A stretch of 14,961 bases of DNA from IMG/VR virus record IMGVR_UViG_3300024992_000003. The stretch is one strand, 5' to 3'. The notes beneath the pieces were generated by a model. That model ran no database searches, was not told where the DNA came from, and worked only from the letters and a program-made list of their open reading frames with translations. Below, one piece after another: positions 3,041-14,961 of this stretch. Position numbers and translations under genes: made by a program. This stretch comes from a virus. Positions within the stretch are counted from its first letter, which is position 1, and each line of letters opens with the position of its first letter.

Positions 3041-3088
3041 TCGACGCCTCCAGCGTCGCTCAGGCCACCGCACACTCGCTCGTGCTGT

Positions 3089-3700
3089 TCATGAGGCGCT
3101 TCTCGACGCTTCGTCGATCTCCCGGCGAAGTTTCTCCATCCGGGCGAGCCTCGCGGCGTCCAACGGCTCCCGCCCCTGCCTCACGCCGACTTCCGTCCCC
3201 TGGTATGCCGGGTACGTCACCGGGGAGACGTCGAATAGGTCCAGGTCCATCACGTCCCGCTCGATCAGGCGGCGGTTCGTCCCGCGATCCATCGAGCGCG
3301 TGACCGCCTGGCCGCCGGGTCGGATCCTGAACCCGAAGGACGACCCAGTGACGTCGCGCCGGCGGATGAAGATGAGGCAGTCTCGGCCGATGGTGGTGTC
3401 CGACATGTCGACTTCGTAGGCCAGGCCGTGCGAGTCGACCGTAAGCCGGCAGGTCCCGGAGAGCGTCCGGCCCAGCAGCAATCTCGGGTCGTGGTTGAAC
3501 AGGGCCCGGACGTCCTGGCGCTCGCGGATGGCCCTCGCGAACGCCCCGGGCCGGATGCGCTCCCGGATGACGACGTGGGCGTCCTCGTACAGCGTCGTCC
3601 ATTGGTCGAAGACGGCCGCATAGCCGCGGATGACCGGGGGCGCCCCCCCCGAATCCCGCAAGCCCACCGGCCCCGATACGTCTCGATACTCGATGCTCAT
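3089..3700 (-). CDS. HK97-family prohead (capsid maturation) protease, peptidase S78
   Basis: 203 aa with GYAAVF, PGAF, LFNHD (His), LLGRT, GLAYEV, DVTGSSFGF (Ser) and FDVSPVTYPAYQGT, in the order typical of PF04586. Confidence 0.9.
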   Translation of the reverse strand: MSIEYRDVSGPVGLRDSGGAPPVIRGYAAVFDQWTTLYEDAHVVIRERIRPGAFARAIRERQDVRALFNHDPRLLLGRTLSGTCRLTVDSHGLAYEVDMSDTTIGRDCLIFIRRRDVTGSSFGFRIRPGGQAVTRSMDRGTNRRLIERDVMDLDLFDVSPVTYPAYQGTEVGVRQGREPLDAARLARMEKLRREIDEASRSAS

Positions 3701-3762
3701 GGTGCCACCCAGGGGGGGGGAGACGTCCCCGCCCTATTTCGCGGGGACGGGGGCGTCGAAGT

Positions 3763-3999
3763 TCAGACTGAAGCTGCGAACTCCCGACCCGAACGGTAGG
3801 GCCGCGGGGACGTCACGCCGCGGACGTCGTCCGCCCCGGCGACGACTTCGACGGCCCCCGACTCCAACAGGATCTTGGCTTCGACGGGATGGGCGTCGAA
3901 CTCCGTCCCTTTGCGGATCTGGATGAAGTTGCCGTCCCTGAACCCCTGGCGGACGGCTTCGGCGTCCAATACTCGGACCCTTACAGTTTTCGTGTTCAT
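3763..3999 (-). CDS. Hypothetical 78-aa protein carrying one copy of the module repeated in the two upstream paralogues
   Basis: Good third-position GC. FIQIRKGTEFDAHPVEAKILLESGAVEV resembles the KGEV..(V/L)PE...LL segments of 4072-4596 and 4644-5147. Weak SD. Confidence 0.55.
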   Translation of the reverse strand: MNTKTVRVRVLDAEAVRQGFRDGNFIQIRKGTEFDAHPVEAKILLESGAVEVVAGADDVRGVTSPRPYRSGREFAASV

Positions 4000-4026
4000 G
4001 ATTTACTAGCTCTATGCGTCGTCGTG

Positions 4027-4060
4027 AAAGAAAACCCCCGCCGACGTCGGTCGGCGGGGG
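4027..4060 (-). terminator. Rho-independent terminator after the capsid operon
   Basis: Perfect 11-bp stem cccccgccgac / gtcggcggggg (4035-4045, 4050-4060) with a 4-nt loop, followed on the - strand by TTTTCTTT (4027-4034). It lies 12 nt after the stop at 4072. Confidence 0.7.
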
Positions 4061-4071
4061 CGTGGATCGGG

Positions 4072-4596
4072 TCAGGAGTGGTAATTGACGTCGAACGTCA
4101 CGTCCGCGACCATGGCGCGGAGCGTCTCCGGAGGCAGGGTGAATTCGGCCCCCGGGGCGATATTGAACCGGGCATGGACCGGACTTTGGAGCAATCCCCA
4201 AACCACGTCTTCCGGAAGCTCCTGAACCTCGCCTTTCATCAGGATCCGATGGCCGACGCAGGCGTCGTCCTCCGTGCCGATGACTTTGATCTTGGGAATG
4301 ACGCCCAGCTTCCCCACGGGCTCGTCGTAGTACCCGTGACCTCGGCTGCGCAAGAGGATGCTCCCCATCCGCGTGAGCTTGAACGAGTCGATTTCGACCA
4401 TCCCGTTCCAGCACATCTCTCGGATGGCGTCCCGCTCGCAGAGCGAAATCGTCTGGCCTTTCTTCACGGCCTTGCCGCCGATCGCCCCGTCTTGGACGAC
4501 CTTGACGCTGATCCGCGGGCCCTCGAATTCATCCGGCCCTTCGATCGTGCCGTCCGAGTGAAAGAAGCGCTCGATGACTTTGACGGTGGCAGACAT
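4072..4596 (-). CDS. Capsid-cluster protein, paralogue B (174 aa), unknown function
   Basis: ATG at 4596 preceded by GGAGA (cacGGAGAattgatATG). Shares ERDA, KGEV..(V/L)PE and FTL blocks with 4644-5147. Confidence 0.75.
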   Translation of the reverse strand: MSATVKVIERFFHSDGTIEGPDEFEGPRISVKVVQDGAIGGKAVKKGQTISLCERDAIREMCWNGMVEIDSFKLTRMGSILLRSRGHGYYDEPVGKLGVIPKIKVIGTEDDACVGHRILMKGEVQELPEDVVWGLLQSPVHARFNIAPGAEFTLPPETLRAMVADVTFDVNYHS

Positions 4597-4643
4597 ATCA
4601 ATTCTCCGTGATTCGATTTCTTGGCGTCCCCGGCTCGTCGGGG

Positions 4644-5147
4644 TTAGAAGACGTTGAAGGCGTCGAGCTTCGGGTCCGTCCACGCCGCTTCCAACTCCCG
4701 GGACGAGAGCGTGAAGCCCCCCGCCGTCTCCAGGTCGGGGCTGTTGAATCGGTGCCGTCTGAGGAGCACGTAGGCCACCCTCTCCGGCACCTGGACGACT
4801 TCGCCCTTCGTCATCAAGCGGTTGGCGCACATGACGCCGTCCCGCTTGGCGACCATCAGGACGACCGGCCCGGATTCGTCTTTGGGGCCGGCTATGACGT
4901 AGGGCCGGGACCCCTCGCCCGCCAGGTAATCGAGGCCCTGGGGGCTCAACTCGCCCGGCCGGACCTCCACCGTCCCGACGATCGAAGCGTCCACGGCGTC
5001 GCGCTCGCGGAGGTAGACGGGGGCCCCCGCCGGCCAGGCGACGCCCGACCCGTCGGCGACGACGCCCGCCCTGAGGATCTTGACCAGGACGAACGGGCCG
5101 CGAGACGCGGCCGTGCCGCCCCCCCGCCCTCCTTCCGGATTGCTCAT
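4644..5147 (-). CDS. Capsid-cluster protein, paralogue A (167 aa), unknown function
   Basis: ATG at 5147 lies 26 nt after the MCP stop. The long upstream extension in the ORF track (to 5873) overlaps the MCP gene and is an Arg/Gly-rich artefact. Confidence 0.75.
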   Translation of the reverse strand: MSNPEGGRGGGTAASRGPFVLVKILRAGVVADGSGVAWPAGAPVYLRERDAVDASIVGTVEVRPGELSPQGLDYLAGEGSRPYVIAGPKDESGPVVLMVAKRDGVMCANRLMTKGEVVQVPERVAYVLLRRHRFNSPDLETAGGFTLSSRELEAAWTDPKLDAFNVF

Positions 5148-5173
5148 CGATGCGTCCCCGTCGCGGATGGTGT

Positions 5174-6328
5174 TCAGCCGGTGGCGACGTCGCCGACGAC
5201 GCCGAAGCTGAGCAGGTGCAGGAACGCGACGTCGACGTCCTGGAACGCGGAGACCTGGATCACGCCGTCCGTCGACTGCCTGTAGGGGTCCACCAGCAAG
5301 TCCACCGGCGTGAACAGGTTCACGACGCAATCCCGCCAGTTGCCGAACAGCAGCGGCGACAGGTTCGTCCCGCTCCCCTTCGCCAGATTGCTCGGGACGT
5401 TCGTGGTGGCGTAGGCCGGTTTCCCGACGACTCGCTCGAAGTCCGACCAGAGCCAATTCGACCCGTCGGCGATCGTCCGCATCTTCGCCCGGACGTTCGG
5501 CGAGCCGATCCAGCCCATCGAGACGTCCGCCGGCGCGTCGCCGTTGGCCGCCCCGACCAGCCGTTCCAACTCGACCAATGCGGCCCGCGTCGCGGGGCCG
5601 CCGTTCGCCCCGATCGCCACGGAGTTGACGCCCCCCGTGTTCAACAGGCCCGTCGGCTTCCCGACGCCGTCGCCGACCAGGCCGACGCGATCGATCTCGA
5701 CGCCGATGCCGGTCGCGATGTCGGCCAGGACGCGACGCTCGTGGTCGCGCTCGAAGGCCGATTTCAGCAGCCTCCTCGTGACGGCCACCTTCGCCGACAC
5801 CGTCTTCGGCGTCAGCGTCACGGCGTCGGTCGTCGGGTTCGCCTCCGGGGCGCCCGCCCCCTCGGCCGTCCAACCCACCGCCGCCGCCGTCCCACGGCGA
5901 GGGAGCTTCACCTTGCCGCCCTGATCGCGGGGGAGCGACAGGACCCGAGCCCCCAGGCTCCCCAGGACGGTCCGGGCTCGCAAGGCGTCGACGACCCCGA
6001 GGTCCGGCACGACGGTTCTGACCGCCCCCGCCCCGGTCGTCGAATCCAGGGCCCGTTCCTCCGACTCCGCATCCCCCAGGACCGGGACCCAGAACCCCCG
6101 GGGGGAGCGGTTCGGGTGTCGCCTACGAAGCTCAGAGTCGACCTCCCCTTCCAGGCCGTCCACTCTCCCCGGAGGCCGCCCGGCCTTGCTGGCGCTCTCG
6201 ATCGCCCGGAGAAGCGAATATCGATGCCTGCCGTTCCTCGTATTCCCGGGGTCCTGATGCGGAAGAGGGCCCCAGGAACGACCCTCGACCGCCGTACCGT
6301 AGAACTCGCCGAAACTCAACGTCGCCAT
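5174..6328 (-). CDS. HK97-fold major capsid protein (384 aa)
   Basis: Layout typical of HK97-family MCPs (PF05065/TIGR01554): N-terminal YSLLRAIE...GLEGEVDSEL...SPRGFWVPV, central TPKTVSAKVAVTRRLL, GLLNTGGVN, C-terminal PLLFGNW...DGVIQVSAFQDVDV. Start set at MATLSF (ATG 6328, AAGGGA upstream). Confidence 0.92.
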   Translation of the reverse strand: MATLSFGEFYGTAVEGRSWGPLPHQDPGNTRNGRHRYSLLRAIESASKAGRPPGRVDGLEGEVDSELRRRHPNRSPRGFWVPVLGDAESEERALDSTTGAGAVRTVVPDLGVVDALRARTVLGSLGARVLSLPRDQGGKVKLPRRGTAAAVGWTAEGAGAPEANPTTDAVTLTPKTVSAKVAVTRRLLKSAFERDHERRVLADIATGIGVEIDRVGLVGDGVGKPTGLLNTGGVNSVAIGANGGPATRAALVELERLVGAANGDAPADVSMGWIGSPNVRAKMRTIADGSNWLWSDFERVVGKPAYATTNVPSNLAKGSGTNLSPLLFGNWRDCVVNLFTPVDLLVDPYRQSTDGVIQVSAFQDVDVAFLHLLSFGVVGDVATG

Positions 6329-6475
6329 GCTGCTTTCCCTTGATGCTGAACCTTTGATGAAACCGCGCGCGGCGTCGCCCACGGCCCTGGAAGGCCCGTG
6401 GAAGCGTCCGCGAGACGCACCGCTCCGTTTACTCGCCCCTTCTCCGGAAGCCCCGTGCAGGGCCTCCCAGGGGGA

Positions 6476-6709
6476 TCAGACCGCCGGCCGGAGGACGTCC
6501 CCCAGGTCGACGGCCGCCAGACGCCTCAAATCGTCCGGCGTCGTCTTCGCCAGTCGGACCCCGACGCCCGACCTGGACAGCCCGACTATCCGCCCGATGC
6601 TCGCGTTGCTGATACCTCGGACGGCGCATCGGGCGATGATCGCCGACCGGATCGCGTCCGCCCGATCGGCGTCGACGCGCACAACCTCCCCCCGCTCATT
6701 AGGCGGCAT
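6476..6709 (-). CDS. Small helix-turn-helix DNA-binding protein (77 aa)
   Basis: ISNASIGRIVGLSRSGVGVRL looks like a sigma-r4/resolvase-type HTH; GGGGAG 7 nt upstream of the ATG; first gene of the capsid transcription unit. Confidence 0.65.
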   Translation of the reverse strand: MPPNERGEVVRVDADRADAIRSAIIARCAVRGISNASIGRIVGLSRSGVGVRLAKTTPDDLRRLAAVDLGDVLRPAV

Positions 6710-6859
6710 TGTCGCACTCCCCGTTAAAGTCGCCCGCGATGTCGCGGTAGATAGCTCCCCGGCCCCTGATCGCTCGGGGCCGGTAGATTACTGGCCTTCG
6801 GCCGCTACTTCGCTCGGACAGATCGACGTCGAAGCGCGCGGATCCTCGGCACCTTGTAC

Positions 6860-6887
6860 ATAATAGCCACCGCCCAGAACTTTGCAA
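6860..6887 (-). promoter_or_regulatory. Candidate promoter of the HTH-capsid operon (TTGCAA-16 nt-TATTAT on the - strand)
   Basis: -35 at 6887-6882, -10 at 6865-6860, inside the AT-rich island 6860-7010. Confidence 0.3.
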
Positions 6888-7008
6888 ACAGTTTCTCAAA
6901 AGCACGATTTGATCTATGAATTAATATGAATTGTACATTGAATCACAAAAGACGACAGCAATATGACTTGCGTATTCCACGTCAATAGGGAACCCCGGCA
7001 AACCGGCG

Positions 7009-7037
7009 AAAAAAAAATTCCACCCAGGGGGGTGGGG
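7009..7037 (-). terminator. Hairpin (ccaccc/gggtgg, 7020-7035) followed by U9 on the - strand (A9 at 7009-7017)
   Basis: Short 6-bp stem with a 4-nt loop and a 9-nt T run on the - strand; it ends the small-ORF/TerS-remnant unit. Confidence 0.45.
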
Positions 7038-7141
7038 TCGCCTCCCTGGCCCGCGGGGGCGTCGCCGTTGATGCGGCTGGCCCGAGTGCCGGCCGCCACA
7101 GCCAGGGCCGTAGGGGCCGGTTTGGGGCCTCTCCTGCCCAT
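7028..7141 (-). pseudogene. N-terminal remnant of a P27-family small terminase subunit
   Basis: MGRRGPKPAPTALAVAAGTRASRINGDAPAGQGGDPTP matches the GRxGPKPxPTxL...N..P N-terminal signature I recall for PF05119. Strong SD (GGAGGAtaggacgATG). The reading frame then runs through the terminator into AT-rich DNA with no further similarity. Confidence 0.55.
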
Positions 7142-7308
7142 CGTCCTATCCTCCCCCCGACCCCCTCGGGGGCCACCCATGCGGGCGTGTCGTCAATGAT
7201 CCAAATCGCCCGGAAAAAAAACTCGGCATTTCACACGCGCGGGGAAAACGTCGGTGAGGGGCCTTCGATCCCCCAGCGAATCCGACCCCTACCCCCCTGG
7301 GGACTTCG

Positions 7309-7386
7309 CTAGGGCCGCCTCAAAGCGACCTGGAGCGTCCGCAGGAACCAGCCGAGAAGGAAGGCGACGATGCATTTCGTGGCCAT
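7309..7386 (-). CDS. Possible 25-aa hydrophobic peptide (MATKCIVAFLLGWFLRTLQVALRRP)
   Basis: ATG lies 4 nt after the stop of the preceding mini-ORF; very short, weak evidence. Confidence 0.2.
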   Translation of the reverse strand: MATKCIVAFLLGWFLRTLQVALRRP

Positions 7387-7390
7387 GGCT

Positions 7391-7498
7391 TCACTTCCGG
7401 TTCGACTTGCTCGCGGCCCAGAAGAACGCCCACGACACGAGGACGATCATGGCGTAGAACGAGACTTCCTTGATGGCTTCCAGCGTGTTCGCGTCCAT
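7391..7498 (-). CDS. Possible 35-aa single-pass membrane peptide (MDANTLEAIKEVSFYAMIVLVSWAFFWAASKSNRK)
   Basis: AAGGGGA upstream of the ATG; G/C-rich third positions; one hydrophobic helix. Confidence 0.3.
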   Translation of the reverse strand: MDANTLEAIKEVSFYAMIVLVSWAFFWAASKSNRK

Positions 7499-7560
7499 GG
7501 TCACTTTCGCGTCCCCTTGAACAAGATCCACAGTGCGATGAGGGTCGCGGGGTCCACGGC

Positions 7561-7782
7561 TCACTCTCCCGCGGGAGGCCGGACCACGGCCCCGATGGCG
7601 AAGAACAACGCCTCTTCCAGCTTCCCGACCGCAAGGGACTGCTCACGGTTGGGAGGCGTTGCGTCGACGACGACCCTGGCCGCCCTCTTGATGGCCTCGC
7701 GAATCTCATCACACCGGTTGCCGTCCGCCTGCGTGGCCGGACGATGCAGGTCGAAACGACGGTTGATCTCGCACGCTTTCAT
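7561..7782 (-). CDS. Hypothetical 73-aa phage-like protein
   Basis: Clean coding bias. SLAVGKLEEALFFAIGA resembles the ...LEEA.MWA helix seen in many small phage proteins (recollection only). Confidence 0.6.
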   Translation of the reverse strand: MKACEINRRFDLHRPATQADGNRCDEIREAIKRAARVVVDATPPNREQSLAVGKLEEALFFAIGAVVRPPAGE

Positions 7783-7788
7783 GGTCTC

Positions 7789-7905
7789 TCACATCCCCTT
7801 CCCACGCTTGATCCCCTCGCGTTCCGGCCCCGCGACGATGAGGCAGGCCAGGACGACGACCGCGAGGGTGGCGAATCGGCCCAACATGACGAGAAATGCA
7901 ATCAT
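7789..7905 (-). CDS. Possible 38-aa membrane peptide (MIAFLVMLGRFATLAVVVLACLIVAGPEREGIKRGKGM)
   Basis: Its start overlaps the stop of the upstream gene as ATGA (translational coupling); one hydrophobic helix. Confidence 0.4.
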   Translation of the reverse strand: MIAFLVMLGRFATLAVVVLACLIVAGPEREGIKRGKGM

Positions 7906-8162
7906 GTGGATCGATTCTCCAATTTGCGGACTTCGTCGGGCGAGAACCGTCTCGCTATGACCTTCGCGGCGGCTTCACGCGAGCCGAGGAAGCAAGCCCG
8001 ACGGAGTGCCGTTTGAAGCTCCGCATTCATCGAGTGCAGGCCCCTGAGATAGTCCGCCCGGGCTTGCTCGATGTTGCTGAACTTGGCCTGATTAGACGTG
8101 ACGCTCGCCCCTTCCGGGAGCAACGCGGCCGTCTCGACGTTTGATGCGATGCGTGCGTCCAT
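7902..8162 (-). CDS. Hypothetical 86-aa protein
   Basis: AGGA 7 nt upstream of the ATG; coding-like codon bias; no motif recognised. Confidence 0.6.
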   Translation of the reverse strand: MDARIASNVETAALLPEGASVTSNQAKFSNIEQARADYLRGLHSMNAELQTALRRACFLGSREAAAKVIARRFSPDEVRKLENRST

Positions 8163-8171
8163 GGGCGATCC

Positions 8172-8329
8172 TGATGAAGGTGATGAAGGTGATGAAGGTC
8201 AAGCTCTTAATTAATTTAGAAATGAGATTGGTGAGGGTTATGTACAGGAGGCGGTGTACATACGCTGGGAGAACCGCAATAGTGAGTAATCCCTAGAGCG
8301 ACCCTTCATCACCTTCATCACCTTCATCA
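8172..8329. repeat. Two 27-bp arrays of the 9-mer TGATGAAGG (x3 each) in perfect inverted orientation, flanking a 104-bp AT-rich spacer
   Basis: 8172-8198 = (tgatgaagg)x3 and 8303-8329 = (ccttcatca)x3. The spacer holds ttaattaa (8207-8214) and two tgtaca sites. Confidence 0.95.
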
Positions 8330-8638
8330 CCCCCGTTTCCGCCTCCGAAGCTCTTCCAACGTGTGGCATTGCTTGCATAGCGACACGAGGTTATCCAGGT
8401 CCAACGCCAAATCCTGCCGGGTCGCCCTCGGCTCAACGTGATGCACGTCCACGGCGGCCGTCGTCTCGTCCCGGGCCGCACAGTGCTCGCACACGGGGTC
8501 CCTGGCCAGTTTGACGGCCCTAACGCCCTTCCAGCGTGCCGACGAGTAGAAACGCCACGCCTCTTGCCGTGCGGCCTTCGTAGGGGCCTTCCTGGGCTTC
8601 CCCGCGGCCGTCGAACGATAGGGGATGAGCCTCGCCAT
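8327..8638 (-). CDS. HNH endonuclease (phage packaging-associated type), 103 aa
   Basis: CEHC...VDVHHVEP...LDNLVSLCKQCH zinc-finger/HNH motif preceded by FYSSARWKGVRAVKLARDP, as in HK97-like phage HNH proteins. Start at ATG 8638 is tentative (alternative ATG at 8776). Confidence 0.85.
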   Translation of the reverse strand: MARLIPYRSTAAGKPRKAPTKAARQEAWRFYSSARWKGVRAVKLARDPVCEHCAARDETTAAVDVHHVEPRATRQDLALDLDNLVSLCKQCHTLEELRRRKRG

Positions 8639-9386
8639 CAGCCGAGCAGCCAACGGGCGATGAGGAAGCCGATCAACGCCCCTAGCATGAACCCGATCGA
8701 CTCGCCCACGGCCGCGGTTGCCCGGTGCGACTGGGTCGGTAGCGGCCTTCGCTCGACACGGTATCGAGCCGGCCATCCGCCCCCCTGGTTTGCTGCATCG
8801 TGGGGCCGAATCCGACCCGCGATCCAAGTTGGATGACGCTCATCCCGAATGCGCTGGCGACGGGATCATACCCCGGGTATGGCCGCGCTGAAGCCGGTTG
8901 CATCCACCGGACACGCCTGTAGTTCAGACAAGCTCTAGCGGCCCTGGGCGAGTCGCCCATGGCCGCTCTGTGGGGGGGCCTGGAGACCAGATCATTCCCC
9001 GGGAATCAGGTCCGTCATGCGCCGCTCATGACAGGCTCCATGCGCACCTTATGACGGACCTTTCCGACCCCATGCTCGGGCGTCCGGCCGACGAACTTGC
9101 CCCGGTCGACCACTGCTCGCTTCGCCGCGAGCGTCCCGCAGGTCCAATTGATCCAGGCGGGCCGCGTAGCAGGCCCCTCAGATCCCCCCTGGGAGGCCGA
9201 CGACTGCGTCCCCAGGGAGAACGCCCGCCCGCCTCATCGTCGCGTCTCAGCGGCTTCTAGAGGCCCCTACGGATCCGCCCCCGCGTGGCCTCCCAGGGGT
9301 GTGGCTTCGAAACGCGACGGGCGTCGCCGGGCCCTTCGACCCGCGACGCCTGCGCGAGGCTTCGCTTCCCTGGGAACCCGGGGCCG

Positions 9387-9785
9387 TCAGCAAAGGAAGT
9401 CGTCGGCCTCCCAGCCGAGTGGGCAGATGTAGATCACGACGCCCTTGAACGACAGCTCCACGCGATCCCACTTCCTGAGCCAGTTGCGGGACGCGAGCAA
9501 CTTCGCTTCGTTGGACCGATCCGTCACGATGATGGGAAATTCGTCGAGCTCCCCCCACGTCAAATCGAAACGGACGATTTCTCCCAGGTGGCCGAGAGAT
9601 TCGCCCGCCGTCGCCGCGCCGCCCTCCCCTTCCACTCCGTTCGCGGCCGGGATCGGGCCGGGATCGCCCGGGACGGGCGTCGGGACCTCGCTCCCCGCCT
9701 TCCTCGAGCCGCGGGGGGTCGCCTTCGTCTTCGCAGCCTTGGGCTTCGTCGCCTTCCTGGTGGTCGTCACAGTCGCAGTAGTCAT
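9387..9785 (-). CDS. Hypothetical 132-aa protein with a Lys/Thr/Pro-rich basic N-terminal tail and a compact C-terminal domain
   Basis: MTTATVTTTRKATKPKAAKTKATPRGSRK... followed by FDLTWGELDEFPIIVTDRSNEAKLLASRNWLRKWDRVELSFKGVVIYICPLGWEADDF. Confidence 0.65.
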   Translation of the reverse strand: MTTATVTTTRKATKPKAAKTKATPRGSRKAGSEVPTPVPGDPGPIPAANGVEGEGGAATAGESLGHLGEIVRFDLTWGELDEFPIIVTDRSNEAKLLASRNWLRKWDRVELSFKGVVIYICPLGWEADDFLC

Positions 9786-9986: not shown

Positions 9987-10196
9987 ATGGCAGGACTTGC
10001 GATGGCCAAGGCAAAGAAGCCCGCCCCGAAGAAATCGGGTGGGACGACTCGGGCGCTCCGTATGAGCCGCGAGTATGCGGAATGGCTTCGAAAAGCCGCC
10101 GCTCGTGACCGCTCTAGCGTCGCCGCCTTCCTCGATCGCGCCGCCGCGTTCTACGCGAAGTCCATCGGAATCGAGGAGGAAGCGCCGCCCAGGTGA
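9987..10196 (+). CDS. Ribbon-helix-helix (CopG/Arc-like) DNA-binding protein, 69 aa
   Basis: Basic N-terminal tail, then TRALRMSREYAEWLRKAAARDRSSVAAFLDRAAAFY (beta strand, helix, helix pattern); GGAAGGTGG upstream. Confidence 0.7.
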   Translation: MAGLAMAKAKKPAPKKSGGTTRALRMSREYAEWLRKAAARDRSSVAAFLDRAAAFYAKSIGIEEEAPPR

Positions 10197-10354: not shown

Positions 10355-11365
10355 ATGATCGGCGTACGCGCTCAGGAAGTCAACCCGGACCCCCGCTCGG
10401 CTCCCCGTCAAATCTCCTTCGCCTTCCGGGCCGATCCCCTGGCCTTGGATGAAATGAAGCTCCCCAGGACGGCGCGCGACGTCTTCGGGCTTGTCCTGGA
10501 CAACGCCCGCCTCCGCGGCGGCCGCTGCCGGCTGTCCAACGGGACCATGGCCCGCATCCTGGGATGCTGCGCCATGACGATCGGCCGCGCCCTGGTCGCC
10601 CTCGAAGCCGCCGGCCTGGTCCGTCGCGAATTGAGCCACGGCGGCCGGATCCGCTCCGGCATCCTGGTGACCTGGGATGGGGTTCAACAGGGATGTTTAA
10701 CTGAACGTCCGTGCGTTCAACAGGAACGTGGAAGGGGTTCAACACCGGCGTTGAAGGGGGTTCAACAGCCGTGTGGCACTAACCAGAGCCCCCATCAGAG
10801 CGTGGACCAGACGGGCCCGATCCTCTCCTCTCAGGGGGGGGAAGACGATCCGGAAGCCGCCGCCCTGTTCGCAACCCTCGGCCCGGCCGCGTTCCTGCGG
10901 GCCATGATCGCCAAGGGTCGCGAGGAAGTCGCCGCCCGGTCGGCCGGGAAACCGGCCCCCTCCCCCGCACCGGCGGAACCCGCCAGGGCTTCCCAGGACG
11001 AGCCGGCGGCCCCGGCCCCGCCGATCCCCGCCCCGGTCGCCGATCGCCCCGCCACGGCCAAGCCAGGGGCCTTCCCCGAGACGCCTCGGCGCGTGGAGTC
11101 CCGCCCGACGTCTCGGACGGTCGTCCAGTCGCCTTCGATGTCCGCCCCCAAGCCTTCGGCCGCCCCGAACGCGCCACGCAGCTACTCCCCCGCCCCGGCG
11201 GTCCCGCCGGACGACGTCATGGCGATGGTGGCCCGGATGACGCGAGGGCTCGCCGAGGGGTTGAAGGCCGAGAACCTGGGACGTCGTCGAGTCGGGCCGA
11301 AGCGACTGGCCCAGCAGCTCGCTGAGGTCCGGAGACGGCACGGACGGGCGGATCGCCGGGATTGA
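10355..11365 (+). CDS. Putative replication initiator: N-terminal winged-helix domain, long Pro/Ala-rich linker, basic C-terminus (336 aa)
   Basis: LSNGTMARILGCCAMTIGRALVALEAAGLVRRE wHTH; iteron-like repeats inside the ORF; located immediately upstream of parA. Function is inferred, not recognised by a family motif. Confidence 0.6.
   Translation: MIGVRAQEVNPDPRSAPRQISFAFRADPLALDEMKLPRTARDVFGLVLDNARLRGGRCRLSNGTMARILGCCAMTIGRALVALEAAGLVRRELSHGGRIRSGILVTWDGVQQGCLTERPCVQQERGRGSTPALKGVQQPCGTNQSPHQSVDQTGPILSSQGGEDDPEAAALFATLGPAAFLRAMIAKGREEVAARSAGKPAPSPAPAEPARASQDEPAAPAPPIPAPVADRPATAKPGAFPETPRRVESRPTSRTVVQSPSMSAPKPSAAPNAPRSYSPAPAVPPDDVMAMVARMTRGLAEGLKAENLGRRRVGPKRLAQQLAEVRRRHGRADRRD
10679..10769 (+). 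repeat. Iteron-like direct repeats (G)GGGTTCAACA(G/C)(G/C) x4 inside the rep-like ORF
   Basis: GTTCAACA starts at 10682, 10715, 10737 and 10760 (spacings 33, 22, 23 nt, about multiples of 11). Degenerate or inverted copies: gtttaac at 10694-10700 and gttgaa at 10750-10755. Confidence 0.6.
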
Positions 11366-11511: not shown

Positions 11512-12126
11512 ATTATCGTCACGGTCGCCAGTTTCAAGGGAGGCGTCGGCAAGACGACGACCGCCGTCCACCTGGCCGCGTATCTCCGCAAGCTCGACAC
11601 GACCGTCCTAATCGACGGCGATCCCAACCGCTCGTCCACGGCCTGGTCGGCGCGGGGCTCCCTGCCCTTCGACGTCGCCGACGAAGCGATGACGGCGAAG
11701 GTGGCGAGGGCCTACGAGCATCTCGTGTTCGACACGGCCGCCCGCCCCGACCCCGACGTCTTGCGGGTCCTGGCGGACGGATGCGACATGCTCGTCATCC
11801 CCACTACGGCGGACGGCCTGTCGTTCGACGCGCTCATGCTGACGGTCGCCGCGCTCAAGAAGATCGACGCGATGAAGTATCGAATCCTGGTCACGATGGC
11901 CCCGCCGAAGCCGGCCCGGGATGGAGAGATCGCCCGAGACGCTTTGGCCTCCCAAGGGCTCCCCGTCTTCGACGCTACGGTCCGGAACCTGAAAGCGTTC
12001 AAGGTCGCCGGGACTCAGGGCGTCATCGTTTCGGACGTCCGCGATCCCCGCGCGAATCTCGGATGGTGGGATTACGTCGCTGTGGGCGATGAACTGAGGG
12101 GCTACGTCGAGGGCGGGACGCGATGA
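11512..12126 (+). CDS. parA: ParA/Soj-family partition ATPase (about 204 aa); apparent non-canonical ATT (or ATC) start
   Basis: IIVTVASFKGGVGKTTTAVHLAAYL (deviant Walker A), VLIDGDPN, HLVFDTAA (Walker B-like), MLVIPTTAD. The frame is open from 11386 but has no ATG/GTG/TTG before the Walker A. SD GGGGAGGG lies 4 nt before ATT 11512. Confidence 0.85.
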   Translation: MIVTVASFKGGVGKTTTAVHLAAYLRKLDTTVLIDGDPNRSSTAWSARGSLPFDVADEAMTAKVARAYEHLVFDTAARPDPDVLRVLADGCDMLVIPTTADGLSFDALMLTVAALKKIDAMKYRILVTMAPPKPARDGEIARDALASQGLPVFDATVRNLKAFKVAGTQGVIVSDVRDPRANLGWWDYVAVGDELRGYVEGGTR

Positions 12127-12434
12127 GCAAGAAATTCGACCCGGCCGCGTCGCTCAAGAACATCCTGGACGCGAAGCGTGGGAAGGAAACCATCTCTGAG
12201 GAGTCCGCCCCTCTTCAGGCCCCTCCCCCCTCCCCTGCCCCGGTGGAGTCGCCCCCAGCTCCCAAGGGGAGAGGCGGCAAGAGCAGCGATCCAAAGTACG
12301 TTCAATGCTCGGTTTATCTCCTCAGGACCACGCGAAAGCGTGTGAATCGAGCCTTGGACGACGAAGACGCAGGCCGCGATTTCAGTGAGCTCGTGGAAAC
12401 CCTTCTCAATCAATGGCTTGAGTCGAGTACCTGA
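12123..12434 (+). CDS. ParG-like ribbon-helix-helix centromere-binding protein candidate (103 aa)
   Basis: ATGA overlap with the parA stop; disordered Pro-rich N-terminus, then KYVQCSVYLLRTTRKRVNRALDDEDAGRDFSELVETLLNQWLE (RHH pattern). Confidence 0.7.
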   Translation: MSKKFDPAASLKNILDAKRGKETISEESAPLQAPPPSPAPVESPPAPKGRGGKSSDPKYVQCSVYLLRTTRKRVNRALDDEDAGRDFSELVETLLNQWLESST

Positions 12435-12525
12435 GTACCTAGGCATCGGAAGACGAAAGTATCGGGCTTGTTAGGTATCTAAGTGGCTAGGTATATAGGT
12501 ACTTGATAGGCTGCTTAGGTTAAAG
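12425..12525. repeat. Cluster of short repeats: GAGTACCT x2 in tandem, then six TAGG(T/C)(A/T) hexamers; candidate parS centromere
   Basis: gagtacct at 12425 and 12433. TAGG starts at 12440, 12472, 12488, 12496, 12507 and 12516 (three are exact TAGGTA). Related AGGTA/TACCT copies occur upstream of parA. Confidence 0.45.
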
Positions 12526-12621
12526 CTGATATCTGCTTTTACCGATTATGCGCAAAGGCGATATGGAGGATGACAGGCAAAACGGCAAAGCGTTTTGCAG
12601 GCGAAACCGGAATACGTACAA

Positions 12622-12891
12622 ATGAACGAAGCAGCGAAGCCATCCAGCGGCAAATTGCGAAAGCGGCAAAGCGGCAAGCCCGAAAGCCGGCCAGCATCAT
12701 CGAAGGTTAAAGCTACGATACATCTGAGCATCGAGGCCGATCAACGCTTAAACATTCACTGTGCGATGATGCGGAAGGATCGATCCGAGTTGATCGAAGA
12801 ACTCATCAACACGCATCTTCGCCGGTATGTCGTGTCGGACCGTGGAGGAGGAGAGCAGGGGGCCGGGGACGATGAAACTCCTGCGGACTGA
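12622..12891 (+). CDS. Second RHH-like small DNA-binding protein (89 aa)
   Basis: KVKATIHLSIEADQRLNIHCAMMRKDRSELIEELINTHLRRYVV parallels the RHH core of 12123-12434. Lower third-position GC than its neighbours; no clear SD; start uncertain (TTG 12595 or ATG 12622). Confidence 0.5.
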   Translation: MNEAAKPSSGKLRKRQSGKPESRPASSKVKATIHLSIEADQRLNIHCAMMRKDRSELIEELINTHLRRYVVSDRGGGEQGAGDDETPAD

Positions 12892-13009
12892 CTCCAGCCG
12901 CATGGGCGGGCCAGGGGCAGCGGGGTTCCGTAGGACGTGGGATGTGCTCGCCGGGCGAAGCGGTTTTGACTCTAATAGAGTCAGTCGAGTTCCCAGGGAG
13001 GTAGGCCCT

Positions 13010-13435
13010 ATGTACCATCGAACTATGGCTACAACCCTCAAATCCCCAAACTTCGCTGCTTGGCTGGACAAGGCGGTCGCCATCATGCCCCCGGACCTCG
13101 TCGAGGAACTGCACGTCTACGCGATGGCGCAAATGCGAGAACAGGCCCGTTCCCGCCGCCGGAGCCGACCCCGCAAGCGGAAGTTCCGGGTGGCGTCCAG
13201 CGTCCATACGGCATCCTTCCCGATTCGCCGGCCGACCCTGAATCCCTACGCCTATGCACTCGCGAAGGCCATGGAAGCCAAGGTCGAGGCACGTTTCGCC
13301 AGGGCCGCCCGGCCGCTCCCCGACGAACCTCGTTTCAACGAAGAAACCATGCAGGCCATCCGCGACACCGAGGCCGGGATAGGGGTCTCACGGTACAAGG
13401 ATGCCGCTGAGATGTTCGCCGACATGGGCCTTTGA
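13010..13435 (+). CDS. Type II antitoxin candidate (141 aa), RelB/DinJ-like C-terminal toxin-binding segment
   Basis: GGGAGG SD before ATG 13010. C-terminal FNEETMQAIRDTEAGIGVSRYKDAAEMFADMGL resembles the antitoxin tail commonly paired with YafQ/RelE toxins. Stop is 3 nt before the toxin start. Confidence 0.65.
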   Translation: MYHRTMATTLKSPNFAAWLDKAVAIMPPDLVEELHVYAMAQMREQARSRRRSRPRKRKFRVASSVHTASFPIRRPTLNPYAYALAKAMEAKVEARFARAARPLPDEPRFNEETMQAIRDTEAGIGVSRYKDAAEMFADMGL

Positions 13436-13438
13436 CGC

Positions 13439-13792
13439 ATGCCTGACAAGCGGCGATCGAAGGCGAAACGCAAATCGCGGCCGAAGGCCGAAGCGCCTCC
13501 CGTCCCCGAGGCACCCCGCGCCGACTTGACGGTCGTACCGGGAAGCCGATTCAAGCGTGACCTGGAGCGAATGAAGGCGCGGGGCAAAGACCTGAACAAG
13601 ATCGCGGCAGTGATCGACGCCCTTAAGGCCCATCGCCCCCTAGCGGCCAAACACGTCGATCATGGGCTGACGGGCAACCTGGAAGGGTATCGGGACTGCC
13701 ATGTCGAGCCGGATTGGGTGTTGATCTACAAACGCACCGCCGACCAGCTGCTGCTCTTCAGGACCGGAACCCACTCCGACCTGGACCTCTAG
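13439..13792 (+). CDS. yafQ: YafQ-family (RelE/ParE superfamily) type II toxin, mRNA interferase, with a ~27-aa basic N-terminal extension
   Basis: FKRDLERMKARGKDLNKI...L...HVDHGLTGNLEGYRDCHVEPDWVLIYKR..DQLLLFRTGTHSDL matches the YafQ consensus layout. Confidence 0.85.
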   Translation: MPDKRRSKAKRKSRPKAEAPPVPEAPRADLTVVPGSRFKRDLERMKARGKDLNKIAAVIDALKAHRPLAAKHVDHGLTGNLEGYRDCHVEPDWVLIYKRTADQLLLFRTGTHSDLDL

Positions 13793-13862
13793 GCTCGCCG
13801 CCTGCCAGCGTTATCGCCTGTCCGCCCGAATTCTCGCGAGGGTTGGGCAAGGGCGGGAGAGG

Positions 13863-14171
13863 TCAAAAGCCCCCGTACCTCGGCAGGCCGAGGGCCTTTC
13901 TCACGTTGCCGAGGATGGTCCCGAGATACCCTTGAAGCTCGACATAGGTCGCCTGGGCTTCGATGGCGCGGGACGGGATCGTCTTGGGCCATTGGAAGGG
14001 TTGCAGGTCCGGGACCGCCTTCTCCGCGACCTCCAGAAGTTCGTTGTACCGATCGATGAAATGGCGGCTGGCGTTCTTCACCAGATCTTTGACCGGCACC
14101 GGCCGCAGGGCGTTGGTCAGTTCAAGAATCGCCGCCTCGATCGCCCTGAGCGTTTCGTCCTCAGGTTTCAT
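13863..14171 (-). CDS. Hypothetical helical 102-aa protein
   Basis: ATG 14171 preceded by GGAGGG (cggaacGGAGGGttgagATG); coding-like codon bias; no motif recognised. Confidence 0.6.
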   Translation of the reverse strand: MKPEDETLRAIEAAILELTNALRPVPVKDLVKNASRHFIDRYNELLEVAEKAVPDLQPFQWPKTIPSRAIEAQATYVELQGYLGTILGNVRKALGLPRYGGF

Positions 14172-14638
14172 CTCAACCCTCCGTTCCGTGAAACATGCGT
14201 GGAACGCGGGGCCGATTCTCGCTGTCGCCATGCACGCGGTCAACCGGGCGATCGTCCCTCGACGATGAGGGCGAAAGCGAACCACGGGTCAGCATTCGGC
14301 CCGGTCGCCGATGCTCGCTGGAACGCTCAGGCGGAATTCAGGGCAAGATTCCTGGAATCTCCTGTAAGAAGCCTTAGAGCGTCCTATTTCCTAGATGGCG
14401 GCCCTAGACGCCACCTTCCGCGGCTTTCCCAGAAGCCGCTACGCTGTCAGGCAAGTCAAATAGCAGGGGTCGCATAATCGGCCGGATTCAACGTCTCTGA
14501 CGCCTGCGCCTGACGCGTCTGCCGGAGATGGGCCACTTTCGCGCCTCCTTGATCGTTTGGCGCGCGCATCCTTAGCAAGGCGAGGAATCGAGAGAGACTC
14601 AAGTCTCCTCGATCAAACGTCGATAATTAGCTGGGGGT

Positions 14639-14834: not shown

Positions 14835-14961
14835 CCCCGCCGCCGACGCGTGTTCGTCGACGGGAAGGGCTTCCCAGGGGCCTGTCCGCCCCTGGGAAGC
14901 CGGTGATAGGACCCCCAACGCCCGCCAGGCGAAAGGAACCCCAACGATGAATTCTACATCC
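14835..14961. repeat. Second copy of the terminal direct repeat (= 1-127)
   Basis: Identical to 1-127, including the start of the 113-331 ORF. Confidence 0.95.

Follow-up and report, generated by a model that had tools for sequence, protein, structure and literature searches.

The viral record IMGVR_UViG_3300024992_000003 of IMG/VR, a stretch of 14,961 nucleotides that we refer to as the window, raises the question of why a plasmid-like replicon carries the shell protein and the maturation protease of an HK97-like phage head together with neither a portal nor a large terminase subunit (TerL). An earlier note on this DNA had offered two answers: either the window is a plasmid-borne, helper-dependent satellite that makes its own shell and borrows portal, TerL and tail from a co-resident phage, or it encodes a portal-less, encapsulin-like compartment. 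The first answer proved to be the better supported, by the selection acting on the head genes, by the gene layout of a family of related elements and by the existence of related phages, whereas a helper, a cos site and a packaged form were not found. With moderate confidence, and judging from gene content and comparison, we read the window as a low-copy plasmid of Isosphaeraceae, partitioned by ParA and stabilised by a toxin-antitoxin (TA) pair, that doubles as a helper-dependent phage satellite.

True genes were told apart from the many spurious open reading frames (ORFs) of this 64% G+C sequence by profiling the G+C content of third codon positions (GC3). The head genes lie on the minus strand. 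The major capsid protein (MCP; 5174-6328, 384 aa) is of the HK97 fold (PF05065 Phage_capsid, 1.6e-28; phrog_617, 3.5e-40; TIGR01554), and the 203-aa protein encoded at 3089-3700 is an S78 prohead serine protease of the HK97 family (PF04586, 1.6e-40; phrog_80, 7.8e-45; TIGR01543, 2.9e-25). A sequence search of the protease against the Protein Data Bank (PDB) gave no match; its catalytic residues were checked against HK97 gp4, whose His65 and Ser114 sit in invariant columns of the alignment. Between these two genes lie those of two paralogues, which we call module protein A (4072-4596, 174 aa) and module protein B (4644-5147, 167 aa), and of a 78-aa protein with a single such module (3763-3999). 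Directly 5' of the MCP gene is the gene of a 77-aa protein (6476-6709), and further upstream are a stump of a P27-type small terminase subunit (TerS; 7028-7141) of about 38 codons, with a Shine-Dalgarno sequence and ATG, and the gene of a 149-aa HNH endonuclease (8327-8776; PF01844, 9.5e-11; phrog_144, 1e-21), for which a homologue search returned near-identical copies only. In tblastn searches with the TerS proteins of the related loci L007 (168 aa) and L012, the window matched only residues 1-29/1-38, and the remainder was not found in any frame of the window; the same truncation is present in L008, L010 and L011. The order that the earlier note had given for this strand, with an HNH gene, a TerS remnant, the MCP, two paralogues, a 78-aa protein and the S78 protease, was thus borne out by Pfam, PHROG and TIGR matches and by tblastn. 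Three small ORFs that separate the HNH gene from the TerS stump, including an Acb2/Tad1-like one, are missing from its inventory, and of its 'helix-turn-helix (HTH) protein' the gene at 6476-6709 stands while the label is weakly supported, the match to an HTH_AsnC-type domain (E=0.006) lying below the Pfam cut-off.

Machinery for filling and completing such a shell was sought in several ways. None of the unassigned ORFs of the window reaches 250 aa, and a six-frame Pfam scan of all unassigned stretches gave no match at E<=1, and with that no cryptic portal, TerL or tail remnant. With HK97 TerL and portal as queries, tblastn found nothing at E<=1 in the window or in any locus of the family described below; the positive controls were TerL at about 4e-58 and portal at 3e-27 and 2e-43 in the complete phage contigs L014 and L015, and portal at 8e-24 in L023. 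HK97 gp6, gp7 and gp10 were likewise negative by tblastn in the window, where the sole trace of a head-tail connector was a match of phrog_5938 to an 86-aa ORF at E=0.076. Pfam and PHROG scans of the window showed no match for a P4 alpha-type primase-helicase or for Sid, Psu or Delta, and a Stl-type repressor, a pri-rep gene with adjacent ori and an integrase are absent from it. It also holds no adaptor, stopper, serine integrase, scaffold or tape-measure protein, so that from the gene set of the satellites called EPIPs only the MCP and the TerS stump are present. The earlier claim that there are no portal, TerL, tail or lysis genes therefore holds by ORF size, Pfam and PHROG matches, six-frame scan and HK97 tblastn, and the hypothetical ORFs, examined for a hidden portal or terminase with the same profile, six-frame and tblastn searches, came out empty. 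Tested as a phage-plasmid, the window has the maintenance genes and an incomplete set of virion genes.

The head genes themselves are well kept. For pairwise dN/dS we used as reference L008, a contig listed in IMG/VR as a viral genome, which is 90% identical in nucleotides across 3077-7355. The ratio was 0.21 for the MCP (p=5e-10), 0.30 for the protease (pN/pS <1, p=4e-5), 0.19 for the 78-aa protein (91% identical), 0.43 and 0.44 for the module proteins (B being 95% identical) and 0.23 for the 77-aa HTH-like protein (96% identical). Constraint was strongest for the HNH endonuclease (0.10). Values near 1 were obtained for the fast-evolving 86-aa ORF (7902-8162, minus strand; 45% identical to a 101-aa ORF of L008, dN/dS 0.94) and for a 132-aa backbone protein (9387-9785, minus strand; homologues in L008, 76%, and L056, 52%). 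When the five head genes were pooled, 94 non-synonymous differences in 2,227 sites stood against 109 synonymous ones in 787 sites, a pN/pS of 0.31 (p=7e-17 against neutrality). An MCP of exactly this sequence is encoded on at least 23 contigs, and in the long copies from several assemblies, which are 99.2-100% identical, no head gene is disrupted. These data confirm that the head genes are under purifying selection and are maintained rather than decaying, as had been suspected for the MCP and protease from their intact His/Ser motifs; a check of close copies of these two for inactivating changes found the head genes intact. The maintenance of the head genes, with their catalytic residues and an MCP identical on so many contigs, is one reason for reading the window as a satellite, and another is that the most constrained gene is that of the HNH protein, a cos-cleavage cofactor in HK97-like phages.

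The replicon is closed. Positions 1-127 are identical to 14835-14961, an assembly overlap that reduces the window to a circle of 14,834 bp, and the junction from 14834 to 1 is crossed by four contigs from other samples (L029, L030, L031 and L059) at 99.7-100% identity; either a circle or a head-to-tail concatemer must therefore be present. Encoded on the plus strand are a Rep-like winged-HTH protein (10355-11365, 336 aa; phrog_270 'replication initiation protein', 7.4e-6), with homologues in four relatives (plasmid pPL62-4, 63%; L056, 67%; L001 and L005), a ParA partition ATPase (11512-12126; Walker A motif KGGVGKT; NF041546 ParA_partition, 1.8e-24) and a YafQ/RelE-family toxin (13439-13792; PF15738, 1.8e-29; TIGR02385, 1e-21). 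Directly 5' of the toxin gene is that of a 141-aa candidate antitoxin (13010-13435), called in L030 and L059 and without a family match in profile scans. The parA gene has no in-frame ATG, GTG or TTG upstream of the Walker A motif; an ATT at 11512, 6 nt after GGGGAGG, is probably its start codon, position 1 of the NF041546 profile aligning to residue 2 of the ParA so obtained, and the annotation by gene callers is confined to the C-terminal 145 aa. A 103-aa protein (12123-12434, plus strand), whose gene overlaps the parA stop codon, occupies the ParG or centromere-binding position, and just 3' of it, at 12423-12506, are direct repeats GAGTACCT with an inverted partner, a candidate centromere or operator. 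Hence the backbone of rep-like, parA, TA and small genes described before is there, on the evidence of phrog_270, the ParA Walker A motif and PF15738 for YafQ, whereas 'parG-like' is a positional label, profile scans having given no family match for this protein. The absence of an integrase holds for the whole circle, by Pfam scans of the genes and the six-frame scan of the unassigned stretches.

Comparison with other loci placed the window in a family of small Isosphaeraceae elements. MCPs that are 49-94% identical to that of the window were found only in small elements, never adjoining a portal or TerL gene, and the sizes within the family cluster at 12.5-14.8 kb. Satellites that are packaged in T=4 shells have genomes of this range (P4, 11.6 kb; Staphylococcus aureus pathogenicity islands, SaPIs, about 15 kb), which further argues for the satellite reading, as does the confinement of the MCP lineage to small elements of which several carry an integrase, a primase or AAA_25 replicase with iterons, and TerS. 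L007 is an island in the chromosome of Paludisphaera mucosa with an integrase, an AAA_25 replicase, inverted 9-mer arrays, an MCP, a full 168-aa P27-type TerS, a module protein and a 76-aa protein. L004 encodes an integrase, an HNH_3 protein, a DUF5906 primase, an MCP 50% identical to that of the window, a three-module protein, a 72-aa protein, an HK97-gp10-like protein and a 610-aa tape-measure-like protein, and has iterons. L001 and L002, circularly permuted relative to each other, represent an element of at least 13.3 kb, probably circular and with no integrase, that has AAA_25 and iterons, an MCP, module proteins of 82 and 152 aa, a sigma factor, a Rep-like protein and a 600-aa tape-measure-like protein (phrog_9483, 4e-47). 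L005 and L006 hold an HNH gene, an MCP, module proteins of 80 and 225 aa, a 69-aa protein and a protease. Common to the MCP-bearing members is a core of the MCP, at least one module protein and a single-module protein of 69-78 aa. Proteins of about 600 aa are encoded after the head genes in L001 (7523-9325), L004 (12079-13911) and L005 (1-1586), the tape-measure PHROG matches coming from the scans of L001 and L004; tape-measure genes are unusual in satellites.

Two members are informative about the backbone. A tblastn search of PLSDB led to pPL62-4 (L028, NZ_CP011277.1), a circular plasmid of 12,514 bp that belongs to SH-PL62, a cultured strain of Isosphaeraceae. In this plasmid an MCP 40% identical to that of the window (8642-9760) is the sole structural gene and lies beside a P4-family primase; no portal, TerL, protease or module protein was found in it, and its Rep-like protein is 63% identical. 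Published surveys of planctomycete plasmids do not mention the capsid gene. pPL62-4 is also the smallest planctomycete plasmid known. L056 (1-7735) has the backbone of the window and lacks the MCP and protease module: shared are Rep (67%), the 132-aa protein (52%), HNH (75%), ParA, an iteron cassette, Acb2 (73%) and a T-run element (83%). This makes the head module a cassette that is gained or lost. Scans of genome collections with the MCP alignment and with a conserved 26-nt motif returned no related locus. The family, including the plasmid of a cultured strain, is undescribed so far.

The module proteins are peculiar to these elements. Proteins A and B are about 30% identical, and a profile search with their family among 1.84 billion representative proteins gave nine matches at E<=0.001, seven of them true family members; the remaining two, P0131 and P0132, were the weakest of the nine and were set aside as spurious-looking repeat proteins. 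No Pfam, PHROG or PADLOC family matches them, and they are absent from the related phage contigs. A first AlphaFold (AF2) model was poor (predicted local distance difference test, pLDDT, 59). The second, of protein A (pLDDT 71), predicts two repeats, each of four short strands and a helix, and Foldseek found no fold match for it in the PDB at E<=0.001. The 78-aa protein has no Pfam or PHROG match either and is conserved across the family by position and weakly by sequence: phmmer against the same-position proteins of 69-77 aa gave E=7e-4 for L006, 0.027 for L001, 0.071 for L007 and 0.21 for L004, weak values for proteins that nevertheless share an alignable pattern. In every MCP-bearing member except pPL62-4 the module proteins are encoded directly 3' of the MCP. 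This fixed place, together with their restriction to the elements, is the pattern of satellite capsid-remodelling factors and speaks for the satellite reading, and by analogy we propose that they act as a scaffold or as a capsid size determinant.

The nearest complete phages are two IMG/VR contigs, L014 (G+C 0.67) and L015, with the canonical order HNH-TerS-TerL-portal-protease-MCP. Their proteases are 45-54% and their MCPs 38-40% identical to those of the window, the L014 HNH is 45-49% identical to the HNH proteins of the family, and the P27-type TerS of L015 is 35% identical to that of L007. Judged by these sequences, L014 and L015 are of the donor or helper type: they carry exactly the functions missing from the window, which again agrees with a satellite. 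In both, the protease precedes the MCP, whereas in the window it follows the MCP, with element-specific genes in between. This arrangement indicates that the window is not a simple deletion remnant of a phage of the L014/L015 type.

Two non-coding elements are candidates for a site that acts in cis. The first, of about 85 nt and ending in a T-run (CCCCGCGCGTGTGAAATGCCGAGTTTTTTTT), lies at 7210-7300 on the minus strand. L004, with an MCP no more than 50% identical, has the 30-nt 3' core of the element at 100% identity; over 82 nt the element is 91% identical in L008 and L010, and L012 and L056 have it too (positions 7822-7905 in L004, 1906-1987 in L008 and 4453-4602 in L056). Conservation is much stronger in it than in the genes on either side, and it persists in L056 despite the lack of a head module there. 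As a structured RNA it was rejected, folding no better than shuffled sequences (z +0.3 to +1.7) and matching no Rfam family or tRNA. It is a candidate cos/pac or regulatory site.

The second element, at 8172-8329, is an iteron cassette of three tandem 9-mers (TGATGAAGG) and an inverted copy, whose 27-nt arms are 100% complementary and flank an AT-richer spacer of about 104 nt with a TTGACC box resembling a -35 sequence. L029 and L031 are otherwise 99.9% identical to the window, yet have different 9-mers (CAGGTGTCA, allele 2) and a diverged spacer. The Rep-like, HNH, 86-aa and other covered proteins are identical between the two alleles; coverage by the allele-2 contigs excludes 11702-14445, which holds the ParG-position gene and a ribbon-helix-helix (RHH) gene, so the protein that reads the arrays would be encoded in that interval or outside the element. 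Inverted arrays with repeat units of their own occur in L008, L056 and L007 (9-mers) and, in looser form with units of about 8 nt, in L004 and L001 (L029, 3379-3531; L008, 1223-1383; L056, about 3620-3650; L007, 8600-8841; L004, 7320-7629; L001, 2951-3120), with spacers of about 100-200 nt across the family. They lie directly 3' of the replicase gene in L001, L004 and L007, a likeness to the iteron origins of SaPIs and P4, and 3' of the HNH gene in the window. The cassette is a candidate origin, centromere or operator, or packaging site. IMG/VR scans for both iteron arms returned low-GC coding microsatellites. Two lower-GC IMG/VR contigs, L049 (5749-5990) and L051 (4020-4281), have an AT-rich spacer flanked by TGTGACACC arrays in direct and inverted orientation, in motif and layout as in iteron allele 2; they are unrelated contigs and were rejected as helpers.

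How the element might work can be outlined as follows. In the resting state it would replicate by means of the Rep-like winged-HTH protein and segregate through ParA. The development in the cell of an HK97-like phage with the gene order HNH-TerS-TerL-portal-protease-MCP would be accompanied by expression of the long operon on the minus strand, which comprises the 86-aa ORF, the Acb2-like gene, the TerS stump, the HTH-like gene, the MCP, the module proteins and the protease. The MCP of the element, processed by the S78 protease that the element encodes and given shape by the module proteins, would assemble on the portal of the helper, forming either the whole shell or, as Ccm does, a defined subset of capsomers, and giving a shell that suits a genome of 12.5-15 kb. 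Helper terminase and the HNH protein of the element would then package the plasmid from a site in cis, for which the 85-nt element and the iteron cassette are the candidates, and helper connectors and tail would finish the particle. Since no helper was found, the satellite reading is one that we infer, and this applies to helper dependence, co-assembly, the formation of small capsids and the identity of the packaging site. A more tentative extension, which we hold to be less likely than not, though considerably more probable than the closed compartment treated below, is that these elements form a new class of satellites, in which the predicted beta-module proteins determine capsid size and swappable iteron cassettes set the specificity for the helper.

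Several observations weigh against a satellite. The proteins shared with L014 and L015 are only 38-54% identical, which makes these phages too distant to be named as helpers. A helper phage was not found: in the viral, genome and metagenome collections, no complete phage had the 26-nt core or either iteron arm, and a metagenome scan with the 26-nt motif recovered fragments of the same element only. Of TerS only 38 codons are left, too few for the element to redirect packaging with a TerS of its own. L056 keeps the backbone and no head module, so the module is dispensable for the replicon; an insertion sequence (IS) adjoins the MCP gene in L012 and an IS630-type element lies within the L007 island; and the module proteins are without fold match or assigned role. 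Finally, no cos site and no packaged form were found.

These observations could also be explained if the plasmid is never packaged and the MCP, protease and module proteins serve to misdirect the capsid assembly of incoming HK97-like phages, poisoned assembly protecting the host and hence the plasmid. The truncated TerS and the failure to find a cos/pac site in common with a phage would be expected of such a defence plasmid, and satellite capsid proteins such as Ccm do suppress the multiplication of their helpers (PMC8569155). Purifying selection on head genes of a replicon that is stably inherited by ParA and TA functions fits as well. A part in phage-defence conflicts is shown by the Acb2/Tad1-hairpin-domain gene (7561-7782, minus strand; PF24729, 1.4e-10; phrog_1454, 2.8e-15), which lies inside the operon, 5' of the head genes, is also present in L056 (73%) and encodes a candidate anti-CBASS/Thoeris sponge. 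We nevertheless consider this function unlikely as the sole one, since the integrase, P4-type primase and full TerS of the relatives make up the layout of a transferable satellite, the strongly conserved HNH protein has no obvious use for interference alone, the narrow size range of 12.5-15 kb is left unexplained, and a PADLOC scan matched no defence family beyond generic HNH similarity. Interference and packaging are not mutually exclusive.

Somewhat less probable again is that the window holds what is left of a decaying HK97-like prophage or phage-plasmid, which came to lie on a plasmid and is now without function. The loss of TerL, portal, connectors, tail and lysis genes, the TerS stump, L056, which has lost the head module or never had one, and the IS elements in L012 and L007 are what decay would leave behind. 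Decay does not account for the low pN/pS and the conserved catalytic residues, for the identical and undisrupted copies in many samples, for a gene order unlike that of a simple deletion derivative of an L014/L015-type phage, or for a core of MCP, module protein and small protein that is kept where the MCPs are only 49-58% identical to that of the window.

Very improbable is the second answer of the earlier note, that of an encapsulin caught during its derivation from a phage head on a mobile replicon, with a closed shell serving plasmid or host and the module proteins as cargo or scaffold: the window has no portal gene, module proteins without an assigned function always adjoin the MCP, which has the HK97 fold of encapsulin shells (by PF05065/TIGR01554), and HK97 MCP and protease (gp5/gp4) expressed alone can form closed portal-less shells, but positive support was not obtained, as an S78 protease, an HNH gene, a TerS stump and an anti-defence gene accompany the MCP, while we know of no encapsulin operon with a prohead protease, HNH or TerS remnant, Pfam and PHROG scans detected no cargo-type enzyme on the circle, no enzymatic or known fold was detectable in the paralogues, and the lineage is mobile rather than chromosomal housekeeping, its members carrying gp10-like and tape-measure-like genes, integrases and P4-type primases.

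The reading as a helper-dependent satellite also draws on precedents, namely Ccm, EPIPs, capsid-forming phage-inducible chromosomal islands (cf-PICIs) and plasmid satellites. P4 can persist as a plasmid and has no MCP or protease, its Sid and Psu acting on the MCP of P2. The plasmid state, the size of 11-15 kb, the P4-family primase of pPL62-4, the DUF5906 primase of L004 and the proposed remodelling of the capsid by satellite proteins are points of likeness to P4; inverted iteron arrays lie beside the primase in L004, none were found in pPL62-4, and the window has no P4-type primase. The closest parallel for the capsid gene is SaPIbov5, a satellite of phage phi12 that has genes for neither portal nor terminase and whose MCP homologue, Ccm, fills the pentamers of a small T=4 shell (PMC8569155, PMC5052747). 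Such cos-SaPIs are, like the window, satellites of about 14 kb with an HK97-fold MCP homologue and neither portal nor terminase; they rely on the HNH-type cos packaging of the helper, and their MCP homologue redirects the shell to the small form. The window differs in having its own prohead protease and HNH protein and element-specific proteins directly 3' of the MCP, in being a ParA/TA plasmid with no integrase in a planctomycete host, and in that a cos site shared with a helper was not found. In cf-PICIs the satellite itself supplies portal, head-tail connectors, TerS and TerL, and only tails come from the helper (bioRxiv 2022.09.08.507074). Like them, the window has its own MCP, prohead protease and HNH protein from an HK97-like head module in a lineage that has diverged from phages, but it lacks portal, TerL, connectors and integrase and keeps of TerS only the stump. 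The EPIPs of Mycolicibacterium have TerS, MCP, scaffold, adaptor, tape-measure protein and a serine integrase and form free particles (PMC12822802, preprint); no TerL is given in their gene set, and a portal is nowhere mentioned in the text. Compared by description only, the relatives L004, L001 and L005 resemble them in combining an MCP with gp10-like and/or tape-measure-like genes, whereas the window has no tape-measure protein, adaptor or integrase and does have a protease and plasmid functions. The archaeal pSSVx/SRCE elements combine a plasmid replication module with an incomplete virion module of MCP and/or ATPase (bioRxiv 2025.02.15.638363), but belong to the lineage of spindle-shaped viruses and have unrelated proteins.

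Against this background, the statement that no such class had been described needs to be narrowed: this combination of genes and the family are undescribed, whereas satellites with an MCP (Ccm, EPIPs) and plasmid satellites were already known. New are the pairing of an MCP with a protease on a partitioned plasmid that has neither portal nor TerL, the module proteins, the phylum and the family. Known satellites range from those that remodel helper capsids (P4, SaPIs), through those that add an MCP homologue (Ccm), to those that build a complete head (cf-PICIs). If the satellite reading is true, it adds to this range a type with its own shell protein and maturation protease that still needs the portal and motor of a helper, and Planctomycetota would gain their first proposed satellite family. 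The reading would further mean that elements with a common backbone switch between integrase-based and ParA/TA-plasmid lifestyles, that pPL62-4 is to be reinterpreted as a member of a satellite family, and that the module proteins are new candidate determinants of capsid size or shape. Because pPL62-4 resides in a culturable strain, the system is experimentally approachable.

The remaining features of the window are minor. On the minus strand, a 57-aa ORF (7391-7564; GC3 0.79) is called in L029 and L031 and has no family match. On the plus strand, a CopG-type RHH protein is encoded at 12595-12891 (PF01402, 8.7e-5), and a small 69-aa ORF lies 5' of the Rep-like gene (9987-10196), where a 64-aa ORF is called in L029 and L059; its only match is a marginal one to TacA1 (E=0.088, no stretch passing), which leaves an RHH label unsupported. 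A weak Rfam match to the Methylosinus-1 sRNA over the 3' end of parA (11980-12162, minus strand; 30 bits, where the gathering score is 145; E=0.0014) is probably due to chance. A G-run motif (CCACCCAGGGGGGGGGAGACGTCCCC) and two copies of it that are 77-81% identical occur at 3705-3730, 7020-7045 and 10827-10852, one copy lying directly 5' of the protease start. At 2543-2602, the 3' end of an ORF for a 161-aa membrane protein contains a 30-nt tandem duplication (93% identical) that encodes a repeated PSTDP(A/T)DDIN peptide.

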